DNA of 64,000 nt from Escherichia phage moha. Made by a program: the position numbers and the translations under genes. Positions 737 through 51,035 of the stretch are shown here, one piece after another; position 1 is the stretch's first letter; each line of letters starts with the position of its first letter. The notes below the pieces were generated by a model. The model was given only the letters and a program-made list of their open reading frames with translations, did not search any database and was not told the origin of the DNA. Location: sequence record MN850590.1. One strand, written 5' to 3'.

Positions 737-950
737 TTTTTATGCATGGCAAAAAGCCGGGAGACCGGCTAATAAAGCATTCGGCTCTGATGGATATAAT
801 ACTAGACTCCACTGGAAATTTAATACTCCAGATGATTATTCTCCGGTAATAATTAACGGTGATGTTGTTATATTAGCTAAATTCGGATATTTTATTGTCC
901 CGAAGAAATTCATTATAAATACACCTGTAATTAAACAACAAAGGAGTTAA
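726..950 (+). CDS. hypothetical protein
   Basis: first ATG inside ORF-track 612..950, whose own start is a TTG; overlaps preceding small ORF. Confidence 0.35.
   Translation: MKLDFYAWQKAGRPANKAFGSDGYNTRLHWKFNTPDDYSPVIINGDVVILAKFGYFIVPKKFIINTPVIKQQRS
914..921 (+). promoter_or_regulatory. late promoter TATAAATA upstream of soc
   Basis: exact TATAAATA about 30 nt upstream of soc ATG. Confidence 0.55.
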
Positions 951-21043: not shown

Positions 21044-21072
21044 GTTTACATGTGCTTCAAACATGATATTAT
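21044..21072 (+). promoter_or_regulatory. T4-type early promoter
   Basis: GTTTACA, 17 bp spacer, TATTAT; upstream of motA. Confidence 0.6.
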
Positions 21073-21111: not shown

Positions 21112-21744
21112 ATGTCTAAAGTTACTTACATCATCAAAGCTTCTGAAAACGCTCTGAATGAAAAAACTGCTGCAATAATGGTTTATATCATTAAGAACAA
21201 CTTCACCACTGCTGCCAATGTCCGTGAAGCTCTGGAAGCGGAATACAATGCATCAGTTGTTAACTCTAACATTGGTGTATTGATTAAGAAAGGTTTAGTC
21301 GAAAAATCCGGTGATGGACTTATAGCAACAGGCGAAGCAATGGATATTATCCAAAAAGCTGCAGACCTATTTGCTCAAGAAAATGCTCCAGAACTTCTTC
21401 AGAAACGTAACACCAGAAAAGCACGTGGAGTTACTCCTGAAATGCATGAACTAGCAAACTTTGTTTTTGAAAATATTAAAGATAAAGTTGAAGTTAAAGA
21501 AATTGGTGAAAACCGTAGTAACTTAGAAGTTCGATTTGCAAAACGAGTTCTAGGTATTCGTCAGATCGAAATTCGTCGAGATGGCGCTCTTAGAATCTTT
21601 GCATACAACATGTCAGAAACTGAATCAAAACTGTTTACTTCTCTTGAAAATGATGTTAAGATTAAGATCGGTGGTAAATATACTTACATTGACTTCCCTA
21701 ATGTGTCCAAAGAAATCATTACCCTTGTAACTAACGTACTGTGA
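21112..21744 (+). CDS. motA: MotA middle-transcription activator
   Basis: 210 aa; N-terminus MSKVTYIIKAS...VNSNIGVLIKKGLVEKSGDGLI matches T4 MotA as remembered. Confidence 0.9.
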   Translation: MSKVTYIIKASENALNEKTAAIMVYIIKNNFTTAANVREALEAEYNASVVNSNIGVLIKKGLVEKSGDGLIATGEAMDIIQKAADLFAQENAPELLQKRNTRKARGVTPEMHELANFVFENIKDKVEVKEIGENRSNLEVRFAKRVLGIRQIEIRRDGALRIFAYNMSETESKLFTSLENDVKIKIGGKYTYIDFPNVSKEIITLVTNVL

Positions 21745-23605: not shown

Positions 23606-23878
23606 ATGAATAAAGATATTGAAATCGTACGTGAAATTATTACTATTGCTTCTATTTTGATTAAATTCTCTAGGGAAGATATTGTTGAAGACCGAGCAAG
23701 TTTCATCGGATTCTTGAATGAGATTGGAATTAAAAAAGATGGTCGGCAGCTAAATCAGAATTCGTTCAGAAAACTAATTACAAATTTAACTGCCGAAGAA
23801 AAGAAAACACTGATTAGTGAATTCAATGAAGGTTTTGAAAATATTTATCGTCATTTAGCGATGTATTCTAACAACTAA
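23606..23878 (+). CDS. asiA: AsiA anti-sigma-70 factor
   Basis: 90 aa; near-identical to T4 AsiA as remembered. Confidence 0.92.
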   Translation: MNKDIEIVREIITIASILIKFSREDIVEDRASFIGFLNEIGIKKDGRQLNQNSFRKLITNLTAEEKKTLISEFNEGFENIYRHLAMYSNN

Positions 23879-24547: not shown

Positions 24548-25099
24548 TTACTTAAAGATATTTATAATCGCTTTGATAATAGATTTGTTTTCAAGGTCAG
24601 GGAATTTAGGGAATTCACCGCCAAGATGTTCATGTTTTTCTAAAAGGGCAAAGAATTTTTTGAGCTCTTTAAATTTTCGTTTTTCTTCTCTATTAGCAAC
24701 CTCTGCGTCAATAAGAGAACTTAAAACACTGAATAATTTATAGAGTTCATGAATTTTCTTATCACGTTGAACTACGCGTTTATATGCTTCATCTTCCTTC
24801 CACCCGTCACCGGTCCAAATGTCAAATTCACCAGGTTCTTCTGTAGTAACATTTTGAAGAGCACCTGGAGTGTCAATAACAATTTTTTGCTTATCATAAG
24901 TCCATACTGTTTTTCCACGATGGTCTTCAACATACACCCATTCTTGTTCGCGTTCATCAAATAAAACAGCATAGCCTTCTTTAGGGTCTAAAGGTTTTTT
25001 AGATGTCGAGTGAGCTGGAAGACCCATACCTTTAATCGGTTTGTAATTTTCTTCTTTGTAAAATTCTTTAGTGTCAAAATAATAATGATATATTTTCAT
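24548..25099 (-). CDS. 38: gp38 long tail fibre assembly chaperone
   Basis: 183 aa, same length as T4 gp38; immediately downstream of gene 37. Confidence 0.8.
   Translation of the reverse strand: MKIYHYYFDTKEFYKEENYKPIKGMGLPAHSTSKKPLDPKEGYAVLFDEREQEWVYVEDHRGKTVWTYDKQKIVIDTPGALQNVTTEEPGEFDIWTGDGWKEDEAYKRVVQRDKKIHELYKLFSVLSSLIDAEVANREEKRKFKELKKFFALLEKHEHLGGEFPKFPDLENKSIIKAIINIFK
24559..24566 (-). promoter_or_regulatory. late promoter TATAAATA for holin t
   Basis: minus strand reads TATAAATA inside the 3' end of gene 38, about 20 nt upstream of the t RBS. Confidence 0.5.
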
Positions 25100-29313: not shown

Positions 29314-29321
29314 TATTTATA
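29314..29321 (-). promoter_or_regulatory. late promoter TATAAATA for gene 36
   Basis: minus strand TATAAATA followed by AAGGAGA RBS and ATG. Confidence 0.55.
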
Positions 29322-30487: not shown

Positions 30488-33400
30488 TTATTCAATCCAC
30501 TCGAATTTAACAGATTTATTCACAGGGTCCGGAATAATGCGGACGTTACCAATCCTTAAGAAATCCCTTATTGTCAAGTTTCCGATTGTTGCATTATCAG
30601 AAGGTAAAGCACCAATATCAGATGGCTGAGGAGGGTTACCCCCATCAAATACTTGAACAAAACTTGACCAAGAATTTTTAGTTTTCTGCCATGTACGAGT
30701 CCAACGGGTTGTACGTGCTTCTGGGGTTGTTGGATAAGTAATCCAATCTTGGTAAAGTGAATCAAGTGTGTTACCAAACTGAGTCAGTGTACCAGGAGAT
30801 TTAACTTCTTCGCCACGTTCTAAGTATGGAAGCCCAGTCACTTCATTAGTTTTTTCAACCATTTTAAAATAACCTGGGAACTGGTTATAAGTGGCTGAAT
30901 CGTTAATATCAATTGACCAGAATCCTACATTATCAGATGTTGGCGCACGGGTATATAAATCGGATGTTTTAGTACCCTGAGAACGAATTCTTGAGTTAAC
31001 AGTCAAACCGCCAGAATTTATAGTAGCACCTTTGGCAATGATTAAGCTTTCACCAATCGTAACTTGACCGGATTGATTATTAATTGATAATGGACGTAAT
31101 CCATTAAATCCACCGGTCTGATCACCAGATGCAGTAAGCATAAAATATGTGCTGCCGCCATCATTGCGAATAAAGAATCCGTAATCACCACTAATTGCTC
31201 TGAAAGCATTTGCAGACTTGCTAATGAATTCGCCATTGGCTGTAACTGAACGTCCAAATGTTGCAATGCCATTCGCATTTAACGTGCCTGAAGCGTTAAC
31301 ATTTATTGGCATCAAAGTACCATTAATGCTAAACGTTATATTCCCAGCTTTATTACGTTGAGAATAAAAGTGATTAGATGTTTCATCACCAACTTCAAAT
31401 ACAGTAGAACGTGTTGTATCTGAACCACCACCACCAAATTCATTTCCCCAAACTCTGATAGTCATCGTCTGTGCTGGGTTAGTTCCAGTTTGAGGTCCTT
31501 TCTCAAAAATCAGACGAGTTGCCGTTCCAGTATTAGAAATAGTTAATGTACTATTTGCCGAAACTGAACCACCAAACGTAGCAGTACTAGTTGATACAAG
31601 AGGGGCACTCAGATTCGTTTGTTGGGTTAAGGTTAGTGAACCATTAACCGTCTGTGCAATGTCCCTACGAATGAACTGAGATGAATCTAGGCCATCTAAT
31701 AAATTACTATCTACGGCTTTAGCTTTCAATGGCAAATAGTTAGCAAGTACACGGTTTAATTCATATGGTGATACTGCATAGCTATTTTTCTCATATGATT
31801 CTAAAGGTTGTGTTGAACCAACTGTATCATTACCAACAAATGTAATAGAACCGGATGAAGTTTTAACGAATCCACGAATCGCCGTAGTAGCAGCCCATGT
31901 TGGTTCAGACTGGACAATCCATTTTAAATTCTTAGGAGATACAGCAGTATTAGCAGAAGTTCCTGTTACAGTTTCAGCCTGAGTAGCAACCTTAATTACG
32001 CCTTCAGACGTTTCAGTGGACTTAGTCCCTAAAAGCTTTTTAGGAGTAATAAGAACATCATCTAAAGTTCCTGCATTAGATTCTGCTTGGGTCGCTACAC
32101 GAAGTGTACCACGTTGTGTTTCATTTGCTTTAGAAATATCAAGAGTATAATGGTTCCACAAGGTTCCTTCTTCAATAAGTCCGGAATCAGAATTAACACT
32201 GGTACGGTCAGAAGAATCAAAATGAGTTTTAATTTTCAGTGGAGTCGAGATACGAGTATCATCAGTTCCAGTATCAAATTCAACTTGCGTAGCAAGTTCG
32301 GCTATGCCGGATAATCCTTCCGTAGCTTTCCTATCATTTAACGTCTTAGGCGTTACTGCACGTGTATAATCAGTCCCAGCATTAGTTTCTGTTTGCGTAG
32401 CAATTTCAATTAAACCAATACGTCCATCAGTAGAAGTTTTCTTATGTAGTGTTTCAGGAGTTACTACAGCGTGAGAATAACCTGCTTGTGATTGACCGGC
32501 AATCACTTCACTATCAACAGCTAAAATTACTGCACCTTGTTGAGCATAAGTTGCTTTATATTGGTCAAGGGCTTTAGGAGAAATAGTTAAATTATTTACG
32601 GTTTTATTATAAACGTTAGTGCCTGCAGCACCACGAGTTTCAGCAGGAGTAGCAGAAGTAGTTGATACATATTTAACTATACCTGATAGTGTTTCAGAAC
32701 CCTGACGTGCCTGCAATTTCTTAGGTGTAATAATCGTTGTGTCATCAAGACCAGCATCGGTTTCAGTCTGAGTAGCAATTTCAGCAAGACCGCGGCGAGT
32801 TTCAGTTGCTGTACGCTCATTTAGTTTTTTAGGCGTAACAATAGTATCGTCCACAAATGATGCTGTGGAATTCTGGTTAACTTGTGCTGTTGTAGCAATT
32901 TTAGCGATACCACGTCGAGCTTCAGTTGCTGTACGATTTGCCAACGTTTCAGGAGTAATAGCAACTTCTTTAGCCGGAGTATTCTCTAAATCAACATTTG
33001 CTTGCGCTTGAGTAGCAAGAGCAATAACACCTAAACGAGCTCTAGTTGTATCAGTTCCAGCATCGACACGTTCTACAGTTGGGACGTTTTGTTGAACAAC
33101 CCAATAACTTGTACCAGCAACAGTGTCTTCGATATACGCTAATTCTAATACAGGAACATATGAAGTAGTGCCATTGAATTCTAGTTCAGTAACAGAGACC
33201 CATTGAGCATCAGGTGGATATTCAGAACGTTTAGGGAACTGAAGCAATGCAACAGAAGAAGCAATTGTATCACCTTCGGCAGCTTTAATTTTTACTGTTT
33301 GGCCTTTACGCATGTAGTTCATTGAAATTTTAACAGTGTCACCACTCAAAATTCCTGTAGGCAGCGTAAGATTAATAGTTCCGGCTGTAGCGTTATTTGT

Positions 33401-34366
33401 GCCAAAAATAAGAACTTCTTCATTTGGACGAATATTTGAATCCGCACGGATAATACGAAGACGCGATTTCTGGTCGCCTTCCCATATACGCCATAAACTA
33501 CTTGCAGCATCAAAAACAAAAAACGCGTCAGAGTCATTTCTGCCTTCGGCAATATGAGTCCCGACTTCACCAATAGACGTTGTATCATCAAATGTTTTAA
33601 CAATTGTATGATACAGTGGGTTTAATTTATCTAAATCAACTATGTGGATTATATCACCATTATTAGCATTACGTGGAAGTGTAATGTTGATTGGTGCTGC
33701 ACTAGTAAAACGACGAACGATAAAATCATTTGCTTGTGCTTGATATGGTGTCGCAGGTGTAACAGTGATTGATTCTTTACCATAATCGGTAATATACATC
33801 TGCCACAAACGATTACTAAACACAAACAATAGTTGTGAACGCGGACGCGTCATTAAAACTGTACGAACCTGTTCACCTCTAAAGTTTAAAATGCTCTGCA
33901 CAGACGCGTTAATCTGTACTTTAACTGTCCCGGTTCTTCCACCAATATCAGCCAAAACAACAGTATCACCATCAACCGGCGTATTTGGCAACGTGAAAAC
34001 CATATCATTGCCGGCACCAGTGTTAACCGAAATAGATTCACCTGAAGAAAGTTGATAAGTCCCAGAAGCGACAGTTATCCATTGTGCATCAGTACGAACT
34101 GCACGCCATTGTAAAAGGTTAAATGCCCCGGAAGGAGACACGATATCATTTATTGCTTGATATAAACGGTTGTCATAAAGAACAACAAATCCTTTGTTAT
34201 ATCCACGCGTAGAATCATATACTTGAACGGTGTTTTCTTGTACCAGGAAGTCAACGTTTACGCCATCAGTACCTACTGTACGGTCGGCTAATGCTACGTT
34301 AACAATCTTGTCGCCACCGGCGTCCAGACCGTCTTCGGCTCTGAACTTACGTTTGATGTCGGCCAT
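30488..34366 (-). CDS. 34: gp34 long tail fibre proximal subunit
   Basis: 1292 aa (T4 1289); repeated ATQ...TPKKL motifs. Confidence 0.9.
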   Translation of the reverse strand: MADIKRKFRAEDGLDAGGDKIVNVALADRTVGTDGVNVDFLVQENTVQVYDSTRGYNKGFVVLYDNRLYQAINDIVSPSGAFNLLQWRAVRTDAQWITVASGTYQLSSGESISVNTGAGNDMVFTLPNTPVDGDTVVLADIGGRTGTVKVQINASVQSILNFRGEQVRTVLMTRPRSQLLFVFSNRLWQMYITDYGKESITVTPATPYQAQANDFIVRRFTSAAPINITLPRNANNGDIIHIVDLDKLNPLYHTIVKTFDDTTSIGEVGTHIAEGRNDSDAFFVFDAASSLWRIWEGDQKSRLRIIRADSNIRPNEEVLIFGTNNATAGTINLTLPTGILSGDTVKISMNYMRKGQTVKIKAAEGDTIASSVALLQFPKRSEYPPDAQWVSVTELEFNGTTSYVPVLELAYIEDTVAGTSYWVVQQNVPTVERVDAGTDTTRARLGVIALATQAQANVDLENTPAKEVAITPETLANRTATEARRGIAKIATTAQVNQNSTASFVDDTIVTPKKLNERTATETRRGLAEIATQTETDAGLDDTTIITPKKLQARQGSETLSGIVKYVSTTSATPAETRGAAGTNVYNKTVNNLTISPKALDQYKATYAQQGAVILAVDSEVIAGQSQAGYSHAVVTPETLHKKTSTDGRIGLIEIATQTETNAGTDYTRAVTPKTLNDRKATEGLSGIAELATQVEFDTGTDDTRISTPLKIKTHFDSSDRTSVNSDSGLIEEGTLWNHYTLDISKANETQRGTLRVATQAESNAGTLDDVLITPKKLLGTKSTETSEGVIKVATQAETVTGTSANTAVSPKNLKWIVQSEPTWAATTAIRGFVKTSSGSITFVGNDTVGSTQPLESYEKNSYAVSPYELNRVLANYLPLKAKAVDSNLLDGLDSSQFIRRDIAQTVNGSLTLTQQTNLSAPLVSTSTATFGGSVSANSTLTISNTGTATRLIFEKGPQTGTNPAQTMTIRVWGNEFGGGGSDTTRSTVFEVGDETSNHFYSQRNKAGNITFSINGTLMPINVNASGTLNANGIATFGRSVTANGEFISKSANAFRAISGDYGFFIRNDGGSTYFMLTASGDQTGGFNGLRPLSINNQSGQVTIGESLIIAKGATINSGGLTVNSRIRSQGTKTSDLYTRAPTSDNVGFWSIDINDSATYNQFPGYFKMVEKTNEVTGLPYLERGEEVKSPGTLTQFGNTLDSLYQDWITYPTTPEARTTRWTRTWQKTKNSWSSFVQVFDGGNPPQPSDIGALPSDNATIGNLTIRDFLRIGNVRIIPDPVNKSVKFEWIE

Positions 34367-34396
34367 TCGTTTTTCCTTTATTGTTTCAATAATACT

Positions 34397-34404
34397 TATT
34401 TATA
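34397..34404 (-). promoter_or_regulatory. late promoter TATAAATA for gene 34
   Basis: minus strand TATAAATA about 30 nt upstream of gene 34 ATG. Confidence 0.55.
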
Positions 34405-34407
34405 CCA

Positions 34408-34437
34408 GTTTACGCTTTCAAATGAGTGTGTTACTAT
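34408..34437 (+). promoter_or_regulatory. T4-type early promoter for rnh
   Basis: GTTTAC, 18 bp spacer, TACTAT. Confidence 0.55.
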
Positions 34438-34469
34438 AGACAAGTTGACTAACTGAACAAGAGGTTCAT

Positions 34470-35387
34470 ATGGATTTAGAAATGATGTTGGATGAAGATT
34501 ACAAAGAAGGTATTGCACTTGCCGACTTTAGTAACATTGCACTGGCAGCCGCATTAAACAACTTTGAAGACGGCGATAAAATTACAGTTCCAATGGTTCG
34601 CCATGTAATCTTGAATTCAATTCGTAAAAACGTAGTGATGTTCCGTAAGCAAGGCTATACAAAATTTGTATTGTGTATGGATAATGCTACTTCGGGTTAT
34701 TGGCGTCGAGACTTTGCTTACTATTACAAGAAAAATCGTAAAACCGATCGTGAAGCTTCAAAGTGGGATTGGGAAGGATATTTTACTGCACTCCATCAAG
34801 TTGTTGATGAGATTAAGAAATACATGCCATACGTTGTAATGGATATTGACAAGTATGAAGCGGATGACCATATCGGTGTATTAACTAAATATTTGTCATT
34901 AGCTGGACATAAAGTATGTATTGTTGCATCAGATGGTGACTTTACACAATTACACAAATATCCTAACGTTAAACAGTGGTCGCCACCACAGAAAAAATGG
35001 GTTAAAATTAAGAATGGTTCTGCTGAAATTGATTGCATGACTAAAATTCTTAAAGGTGACCGTAAGGATGGTGTTGCATCTGTTCGAGTTCGTGGCGACT
35101 TCTGGTTTACCAGAGTTGATGGTGAACGAACTCCGAGTATGAAAACATCGATTATTGAAGCAATTGCCAATGACCGTTCTCAAGCTGAAGTATTATTAAG
35201 TGCAGAAGAATATAAACGGTATCAAGAAAATTTGGTTCTCATTGATTTTGATTATATCCCTGATAATATTGCTTCAACCATTATAGAGTATTATAACTCA
35301 TATAAACAACAACCTAAAGGCAAGATTTATTCATACTTTGTAAAATCTGGTCTTTCTAAATTAACAAGTGTAATTAATGAATTCTGA
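34470..35387 (+). CDS. rnh: RNase H (FEN-family 5'-3' exonuclease)
   Basis: 305 aa, same as T4 RNase H; divergent from gene 34. Confidence 0.85.
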   Translation: MDLEMMLDEDYKEGIALADFSNIALAAALNNFEDGDKITVPMVRHVILNSIRKNVVMFRKQGYTKFVLCMDNATSGYWRRDFAYYYKKNRKTDREASKWDWEGYFTALHQVVDEIKKYMPYVVMDIDKYEADDHIGVLTKYLSLAGHKVCIVASDGDFTQLHKYPNVKQWSPPQKKWVKIKNGSAEIDCMTKILKGDRKDGVASVRVRGDFWFTRVDGERTPSMKTSIIEAIANDRSQAEVLLSAEEYKRYQENLVLIDFDYIPDNIASTIIEYYNSYKQQPKGKIYSYFVKSGLSKLTSVINEF

Positions 35388-35394
35388 GGTAAAC

Positions 35395-35664
35395 ATGGCT
35401 AAGAAAGAAGCAGTTGAATTTAATCAAGATGTGCACGGTGAAGAACTGGCTAAACTAGTCAAGGAAGCTTCCGATAACAAACTTAAAATTTCTGGTTATA
35501 ATGAACTGATTAAAGACATTCGTACTCGTGCTAAAGAAGAGCTTGGTGTCGATGGAAAAATGTTTAATCGTTTGTTAGCTCTTTATCATAAAGACGCTCG
35601 TGACCAATTTGAAGCTGAAAACGAAGAGGTAGTCGAGCTTTATGACACAGTTTTCACTAAGTGA
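35395..35664 (+). CDS. dsbA: DsbA dsDNA-binding protein
   Basis: 89 aa from ATG at 35395; between rnh and 33. Confidence 0.6.
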   Translation: MAKKEAVEFNQDVHGEELAKLVKEASDNKLKISGYNELIKDIRTRAKEELGVDGKMFNRLLALYHKDARDQFEAENEEVVELYDTVFTK

Positions 35665-35980
35665 TATTAAACCGGTTGATGAGGCCGGTTTATCTGAACA
35701 AGAATTAGCAGTAAAACACGATAAAGATGATATCGCTAAATTGCTTGACCGACAAGAAAACGGATTCATTATCGAATCCATGGTTGAACAATTTGGTATG
35801 TCTTATTTAGAAGCAACAACTGCTTTCTTGGAAGAAAATTCTATTCCAGAAACACAATTTGCTAAATTTATTCCTACAGGAATTGTTGAAAAAATTACAA
35901 GCGAAGCAATTGACGAAAACATGCTTCGCCCATCAGTTGCTCGTGGTGAAAAAACTAATACGTTAGATTTCTTATTATGA
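35642..35980 (+). CDS. 33: gp33 late transcription co-activator
   Basis: 112 aa, same as T4 gp33; position. Confidence 0.65.
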   Translation: MTQFSLSDIKPVDEAGLSEQELAVKHDKDDIAKLLDRQENGFIIESMVEQFGMSYLEATTAFLEENSIPETQFAKFIPTGIVEKITSEAIDENMLRPSVARGEKTNTLDFLL

Positions 35981-36659: not shown

Positions 36660-36667
36660 TATAAATA
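36660..36667 (+). promoter_or_regulatory. late promoter TATAAATA for gene 32
   Basis: exact TATAAATA about 80 nt upstream of gene 32 ATG. Confidence 0.55.
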
Positions 36668-37702: not shown

Positions 37703-37731
37703 GTTTACTTCTTACCTGGATGTGTTAGTAT
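37703..37731 (+). promoter_or_regulatory. T4-type early promoter
   Basis: GTTTAC, 17 bp spacer, TAGTAT. Confidence 0.55.
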
Positions 37732-50911: not shown

Positions 50912-51035
50912 TATAAATAACTATATGAAGAGAACACTCTTCTAAGCGGTAGCCTACAACTGAGAGACTTGTCGAAAGAAGGTGAAATTCAGACGAACGT
51001 GGCTACTAAATATTATCTCGAATTGAGAATTTAAA

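Follow-up and report, generated by a model that had tools for sequence, protein, structure and literature searches.

The 103-bp spacer at positions 34367-34469 lies between two divergent genes, gene 34 on the minus strand and rnh on the plus strand, within a 64,000-nucleotide stretch of phage DNA, referred to here as the window. Gene 34 (30488..34366) encodes the long tail fibre proximal subunit of 1292 aa (phrog_972, E=0), and its ATG at 34366 reads as CAT at 34364-34366 on the plus strand. On the other side, rnh (34470..35387) encodes T4 RNase H, a 5'-3' exonuclease of 305 aa (PF09293, PF02739, phrog_107), with the T4 RNase H C-terminal domain PF09293 matched at 7.5e-60. Gene 34 is the first member of the minus-strand late block 34-35-36-37-38-t, and rnh opens the plus-strand unit rnh-dsbA-33-59-32, in which dsbA (phrog_639) and gene 33 (35642..35980, phrog_254) were identified downstream of rnh. 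The gene names in the original prediction, 34 and rnh, agree with phrog_972, PF09293 and the annotation of the close relative p000y.

The stretch belongs to a Tequatrovirus closely related to Escherichia phage p000y. Positions 33900-35000 share 99.9% DNA identity with p000y and at least 95% with about 110 other records, and p000y and these similar records carry the annotations 'ribonuclease H' and 'long-tail fiber proximal subunit' in the homologous region. The window is not T4 itself, because its RNase H protein is only 76.7% identical to that of T4.

The spacer is richer in A+T than the window as a whole (70% vs 62%). On the plus strand it reads, from the CAT of gene 34 to the ATG of rnh, TCGTTTTTCCTTTATTGTTTCAATAATACT, TATTTATA, CCA, GTTTAC, GCTTTCAAATGAGTGTGT, TACTAT and AGACAAGTTGACTAACTGAACAAGAGGTTCAT. 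The gene 34 late leader, TATAAATAAGTATTATTGAAACAATAAAGGAAAAACGAATG on the minus strand, contains the Shine-Dalgarno sequence AAGGAA (34373..34378, minus strand), with 7 nt from GGA to the ATG, and the Shine-Dalgarno sequence GAGG of rnh lies at 34461-34464 on the plus strand, ahead of the rnh ATG at 34470. A generic scan for E. coli promoters and terminators reported no terminator within the spacer, Rfam gave no match between 33500 and 38500 at E <= 1, and a repeat search of 34300-34520 returned no inverted repeat and a single trivial 9-nt direct repeat.

Fold prediction placed a small hairpin in the rnh leader at 34454..34468 of the plus strand (TGAAC, loop AAGAG, GTTCA), which holds the Shine-Dalgarno GAGG. 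It is the minimum-energy fold in four lineages, T4, R3_1 and CGG4-1 included, and R3_1 and CGG4-1 carry a compensatory C:G to T:A change in it. As a strong structure the hairpin was rejected, its energy being -4.9 kcal/mol with z = -0.5.

Facing gene 34, an exact match to the late promoter octamer TATAAATA, which is TATTTATA on the plus strand, lies at 34404..34397 of the minus strand, 31 nt from the gene 34 ATG. T4-type late promoters consist of an 8-bp box at -13 to -6 with A/T-rich DNA up to the start and no -35 element (PMC2988020, Nolan 2006). The five bases after the box in the spacer are AGTAT, four of five being A/T; the site at 34404..34397 combines the exact box and this A/T-rich continuation with a co-oriented late gene and conservation. 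By the position conventions of Nolan 2006, which put TATAAATA at -13..-6 and GTTTAC at -36..-31, the late transcript is predicted to start near 34391, 25 nt before the gene 34 ATG, and the same conventions give the predicted start of 34444 for the opposing promoter.

By count alone the octamer is not enriched, with six copies in the window against 6.9 expected. Their placement is not random, however: every copy points the same way as the gene that follows it, and in four cases an ATG (of t, 36, 34 and a small ORF) comes 21-32 nt downstream, the chance for a random site to fall 10-70 nt upstream of a co-oriented start being 4.4% each. The minus strand holds no second match at one mismatch or fewer in the approximately 900 nt upstream of the late box; the nearest is TATGAATA at 35328.

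The other five exact boxes lie at 24559-24566 (minus), 29314-29321 (minus), 36660-36667 (plus), 914-921 (plus) and 50912-50919 (plus). The genes behind them are t, 36, 32 (with the box 81 nt upstream) and two small plus-strand ORFs.

Comparison with about 25 phages, a sample from the roughly 1,600 Straboviridae records with an rnh homologue, showed that the exact late box is kept in at least ten lineages, at 28-45 nt from the gene 34 ATG. It is conserved in T4, sb4, fPS-65, RB69/PhAPEC2/Shf125875, CHI14/Vettismorki and AnYang, and also in CGG4-1, COW86c, GF, R3_1, Phi1 and L009, and Kanagawavirus CIP9 carries the common A(-13) variant. The usual distance to the ATG, the conservation across genera and the predictions published for RB69 and fPS-65 all bear out the claim that gene 34 has a minus-strand promoter of the late class. 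Not all of the 50 listed T4 late sites are proven active (Geiduschek review, PMC2988020), and literature searches turned up neither an accessible paper with a mapped 5' end for the gene 34 late transcript, T4 included, nor a usable global T4 start-site map. From the sequence and its conservation we infer that the late box is used in this phage.

Three bases to the right of the late box begins a plus-strand promoter of the T4-type early pattern, GTTTAC-N18-TACTAT with TGn, spanning 34408-34437. The -35 element GTTTAC (-36 to -31) lies at 34408..34413, and the extended -10 element, TGt plus TACTAT (-15 to -7), lies at 34429..34437, with TG at 34429-34430 and TACTAT at 34432-34437. Both elements give the same start, so that early transcription is predicted to begin at G34444, 26 nt before the rnh ATG. 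The late box at 34397-34404 and the early promoter at 34408-34437 are therefore found, to the base and on the strands named, where the original prediction had put them.

The pattern GTTTAC-N17-18-TAnnnT occurs 20 times in the window vs 2.17 expected, and none of 100 shuffled sequences reached 20. All 20 sites are on the plus strand, a bias that fits the rule that T4 early and middle transcripts are all of one polarity (PMC2988020). Eighteen of the 20 are intergenic, and most lie 27-43 nt before a plus-strand ATG with TG at -15/-14; the rnh site is itself intergenic, 33 nt from the rnh ATG, and has TG at -15/-14. We also scored the site with a weight matrix built from the other early-type sites (leave-one-out) and restricted to positions outside the search pattern. 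This gave +8.3 bits for the rnh site, compared with -30.6 (sd 10.4) for the background; the two sites that probably arose by chance, 34256 and 59960, scored -31 and -47 bits. A chance origin of the late or the early motif was ruled out by strand bias, placement and conservation.

Window-wide, the T4-type early promoters number about 18, none of them on the minus strand. Besides the rnh promoter, they include the sites at 1234, 2715, 7236, 8750, 17966, 18475, 21044 and 23542, and further ones at 37703, 44630, 45815, 47220, 49347, 51788, 52232 and 59149, all on the plus strand. These promoters have in common an A-tract before GTTTAC, GGAT in the spacer, TGn, and cCTATC after the -10 element.

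The two halves of the rnh promoter scored differently. Its downstream block reached +14.4 bits, and the TACTAT hexamer is reused at four other early-type sites in the window; its upstream block scored -6.1 bits, the lowest among 18 sites. The A-tract is absent upstream of the rnh -35 element, where the window consensus AaAAAAta is replaced by TATTTATACCA, and the late box occupies the place where other early promoters have the A-tract. In addition, TACTAT matches TATAAT at only four of six positions (T-12, A-11 and T-7 being kept), so the rnh early promoter may be weaker than typical early promoters. The generic E. coli consensus scan, against which the promoter has 8 of 12 matches to TTGACA/TATAAT, did not list it; a T4-specific pattern was needed to find it.

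The position of the octamer at -47..-40, that of a proximal UP element, together with its lack of enrichment by count, would also suit a reading in which TATTTATA is merely A/T-rich, UP-like DNA of the rnh promoter and gene 34 starts elsewhere. However, other early promoters have an A-tract at this position and the rnh site has the worst upstream-block score, and the exact octamer is kept at a constant distance from the gene 34 ATG even where the layout of the rnh promoter differs. Gene 34 also heads its strand block, and there is no other late box within about 900 nt upstream. We consider the UP-like reading highly improbable.

Taken together, the spacer very probably contains two promoters that stand back to back and work independently, an arrangement shared with the equivalent T4 spacer. 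In the proposed sequence of events, host sigma-70 polymerase would bind GTTTAC, TGn and TACTAT (-12..-7) soon after infection and would transcribe rightward from about 34444 through rnh, dsbA, 33, 59 and 32. At late times, a polymerase equipped with gp55 and gp33 and assisted by the gp45 sliding clamp would read TATAAATA on the other strand and transcribe leftward from about 34391 into the tail-fibre gene 34. gp33 is encoded in the window, and genes 55 and 45 presumably lie outside the 64-kb window, by T4 gene order. The genome-wide programme that leads from early to late transcription involves ADP-ribosylation, AsiA/MotA and gp55/gp33/gp45. Timing at the spacer would be set by this phage-wide programme and would require no device in the spacer itself.

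The two promoters are nevertheless packed closely enough to ask whether the packing is regulatory, with early or middle occupancy blocking the late box and vice versa, in a local toggle from rnh to gene 34. Only about 53 bp separate the predicted starts; in early-promoter coordinates the late box occupies -47..-40, and in late-promoter coordinates the early -35 element falls at about -17..-22. The footprint of a sigma-70 open complex runs from roughly -55 to +20. The clamp-activated late complex extends to about -39 (PMC2988020), a reach that takes in the early -35 element. Given these two footprints, early and late polymerase complexes should not fit together on the spacer, as far as geometry can tell. 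The late box and a sigma-70 -10 element even share 4 bp in Jiaodavirus, Marfavirus, Gelderlandvirus and Erwinia phages (TATTTATAAT). Relatives do not keep a constant gap between the promoters, however. This phage and T4 have 3 bp, AnYang has 7 bp and RB69-type phages have 19 bp, with overlap elsewhere. Moreover, early promoters are shut off genome-wide without late neighbours (PMC2988021). We therefore regard a local toggle as unlikely.

This variability of the gap among relatives argues for independent modules and not for a fixed switch, and the RB69 promoters, which lie 16 bp further apart, indicate that tight abutment is not required. A 'switch' with obligatory spacing was accordingly judged unlikely, the gap ranging from overlap to 19 bp among relatives. 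The term 'switch region' used in the original prediction goes too far: the back-to-back, opposed layout stands, but nothing shows a local switching device, and the gap in RB69 is 16 bp wider.

The rnh promoter contains a further element. The sequence TTACGCTTTC at 34410..34419 of the plus strand overlaps the early -35 element and resembles a MotA box, matching wwwTGCTTyA at 8 of 10 positions with the GCTT core intact and lying 12 nt from the -10 element; its mismatches are C for the first T and C for the last A of TGCTTtA. The MotA box is (a/t)(a/t)(a/t)TGCTT(t/c)A, located 12 +/- 1 bp from the -10 element, and MotA tolerates deviations from the consensus (PMC2988021). At the other 19 early-type sites the match to the MotA box is at most 7/10, none with GCTT. 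Both middle-mode regulators are encoded in the window, motA at 21112..21744 (PF09114 and PF09158, Pfam MotA_activ and MotCF) and asiA at 23606..23878 (PF09010, AsiA), and the canonical middle-promoter pattern occurs 11 times vs 1.7 expected.

These observations raise the possibility that the rnh promoter is composite, with one -10 element served through GTTTAC at early times and then, at middle times, by AsiA/MotA-modified polymerase through TTACGCTTTC. Such a composite promoter would extend the two-promoter explanation and would not replace it. Beyond the match, spacing and uniqueness of the element within the set of 20 early-type sites, RB69-type and Winklervirus phages retain both TACGCTTTC and its distance of 12 nt from the -10 hexamer, whereas the 9 bases separating the box from the extended -10 element differ. 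The RB69 homologue was scored both as an early (Pe 18.9) and as a middle promoter (Pm 16.8) (Nolan 2006), and canonical MotA boxes (10/10) precede the rnh -10 element in Jiaodavirus GF and Marfavirus R3_1. In T4, the RNA from the promoter Pe148.6 unexpectedly falls in motA-am infection (Hinton laboratory, PMC6024815).

On the other side, two consensus positions of TTACGCTTTC are wrong and the TACTAT -10 element is only fair; middle promoters usually need a very good -10 element, and about half have TGn (PMC2988021). The T4 middle-promoter table lists none before rnh, and the authors of the motA-am result found 'no recognizable Pm sequence' there. The conservation could also reflect constraints on the -35 element and spacer, or recent exchange, which is possible because rnh is 94% identical to that of RB69. 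A dual early/middle rnh promoter is plausible for this lineage, but we rate it as less likely than not. The early class claimed for the promoter stands on its homology to Pe148.6 and its early signature; if the promoter also works as a MotA-dependent middle promoter, as it looks, 'early' may not be its sole class.

A broader proposal joins two of these ideas, namely that T-even rnh promoters are generally dual early/middle, and that the late gene 34 complex and the rnh complexes are mutually exclusive on the same stretch of about 55 bp. We offer it tentatively, as rather doubtful. The T4 counterpart of the MotA-like box is TACTTTA, 14 nt from the -10 element, and under the dual early/middle proposal it might, with a similarly low likelihood, be a decayed MotA box. 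If true, dual use would explain the published and unexplained MotA dependence of T4 Pe148.6, and the MotA-box-like element offers a testable explanation for that odd result.

Other middle-type sequences were seen at and around these genes. The early promoter of motA, at 21044, has TGCTTCA within its own spacer. Antisense inside gene 34, about 2.2 kb in, a canonical middle promoter TGCTTTA-N13-TATAAT lies at 32126-32151 on the plus strand, and its position matches T4 P34i, which primes the replication origin oriG. Inside rnh, a middle promoter TGCTTCA-N12-TATTAT lies at 35270-35294 on the plus strand; transcription from it is predicted to begin about 831 nt into rnh, which corresponds in position to T4 PdsbA (start 149,873). 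The sites at 32126-32151 and 35270-35294 are both among the hits of the enriched canonical middle pattern.

Among the relatives, the divergent 34/rnh arrangement is kept in Tequatrovirus, Mosigvirus, Dhakavirus, Gelderlandvirus, Winklervirus, Kanagawavirus and Jiaodavirus, and also in Marfavirus, Bragavirus, Krischvirus, Tulanevirus, Aeh1, and Acinetobacter and Vibrio phages. In Slopekvirus BL02 (L036, 633-1465), the divergent neighbour of rnh is the late sigma gene 55 instead of gene 34, so the 34/rnh junction is not universal in the family. Most Enterobacteria-infecting lineages retain the exact TATTTATA, and the rnh side is plastic. T4-type phages have GTTTAC-N18-TATAAT on the rnh side, Dhakavirus has GTTTAC-N17-TATAAT at 7 bp from the late box, and RB69-type phages have ATTTAC-N18-TACTAT at 19 bp from the late box with an A-tract between. 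The late box thus appears as the stable element of the spacer, with the architecture of the rnh promoter changing between genera.

A further layout on the rnh side is TATTTATAAT, found in Jiaodavirus, Marfavirus, Gelderlandvirus and Erwinia phage COW86c, in which the TATAAT -10 element shares its 4 bp with the opposite-strand late box (GF, L027 1335-1497; R3_1, L028 1413-1503; CGG4-1, L025 1387-1461; COW86c, L026 1423-1482). These phages carry, 12-13 nt upstream and inside the gene 34 late leader, a MotA box that is canonical or nearly so, and that of R3_1, ATATGCTTCA, matches at 10/10. On this sequence, the rnh promoter of GF, R3_1, CGG4-1 and COW86c has the look of a middle rather than an early promoter.

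The two flanks of the spacer differ in their relatives. The rnh DNA is 94% identical to RB69 and 70-77% identical to T4, the 5' end of gene 34 is 71-74% identical to both, and the stretch TTTCAATAATA..TATTTATAC around the late box is T4-like. On these identities, the 34/rnh spacer is a mosaic joint.

For annotation, the analysis provides likely starts for gene 34 and for rnh-dsbA-33-59-32 in a T4 relative that has no promoter annotation, and it shows that the promoter rules of T4 also apply to this phage. These findings leave the present picture of T4 transcription as it was.

The closest characterized counterpart is T4 itself, in which genes 34 and rnh-dsbA-33-59-32 have the same order and orientations and the spacer (T4 approximately 150,705-150,808) is 104 bp long vs 103 bp here. 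T4 also shares TATTTATA, the 3 nt, GTTTAC, N18 and the -10 element, a similar leader, and the TGAAC..GTTCA hairpin before the ATG. However, the two spacers are only about 64% identical; T4 has TATAAT as its -10 element, whereas TACTAT with TGn is found here, and TTTAAG follows GTTTAC in T4 in place of the MotA-box-like GCTTTC. Primer extension has mapped the T4 promoter Pe148.6, which is already active at 1 min of infection and gives a unit start at 150,727 (PMC6024815); T4 base 150,727 lies exactly 7 nt after TATAAT. The plus-strand rnh element is the positional homologue of T4 Pe148.6. The T4 GenBank records AF158101 and NC_000866 carry no promoter features in the 34/rnh region.

In RB69, the homologous 120-bp spacer has predicted promoters Pl:149286, Pe:149309 and Pm:149298 (Nolan et al. 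2006, Virol J 3:30). Between TTTAC and the ATG, its rnh side is about 90% identical to that of this phage, with TTTACGCTTTC, TGTTACTAT and the leader in common, and the exact TATAAATA likewise faces gene 34. RB69 differs in that 16 additional bases, with an A-tract (AATGAGTAAAAGACTA), separate its late box from the -35 element, ATTTAC replaces GTTTAC and the gene 34 leader is unrelated; its promoters are predicted, not mapped. In Yersinia phage fPS-65 (NC_055724), an 8-bp 'predicted late promoter' is annotated on the gene 34 strand and a 31-bp 'predicted early promoter' on the rnh strand, 3 bp from the late one. Unlike the present spacer, that of fPS-65 is of T4-type sequence, with a TATAAT -10 element and no GCTTTC element, and its features are predicted. 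Given the mapping of T4 Pe148.6, the annotation of fPS-65 and the predictions for RB69, the arrangement has already been described for this phage family, and the divergent late/early layout of the window is an ordinary instance of it.
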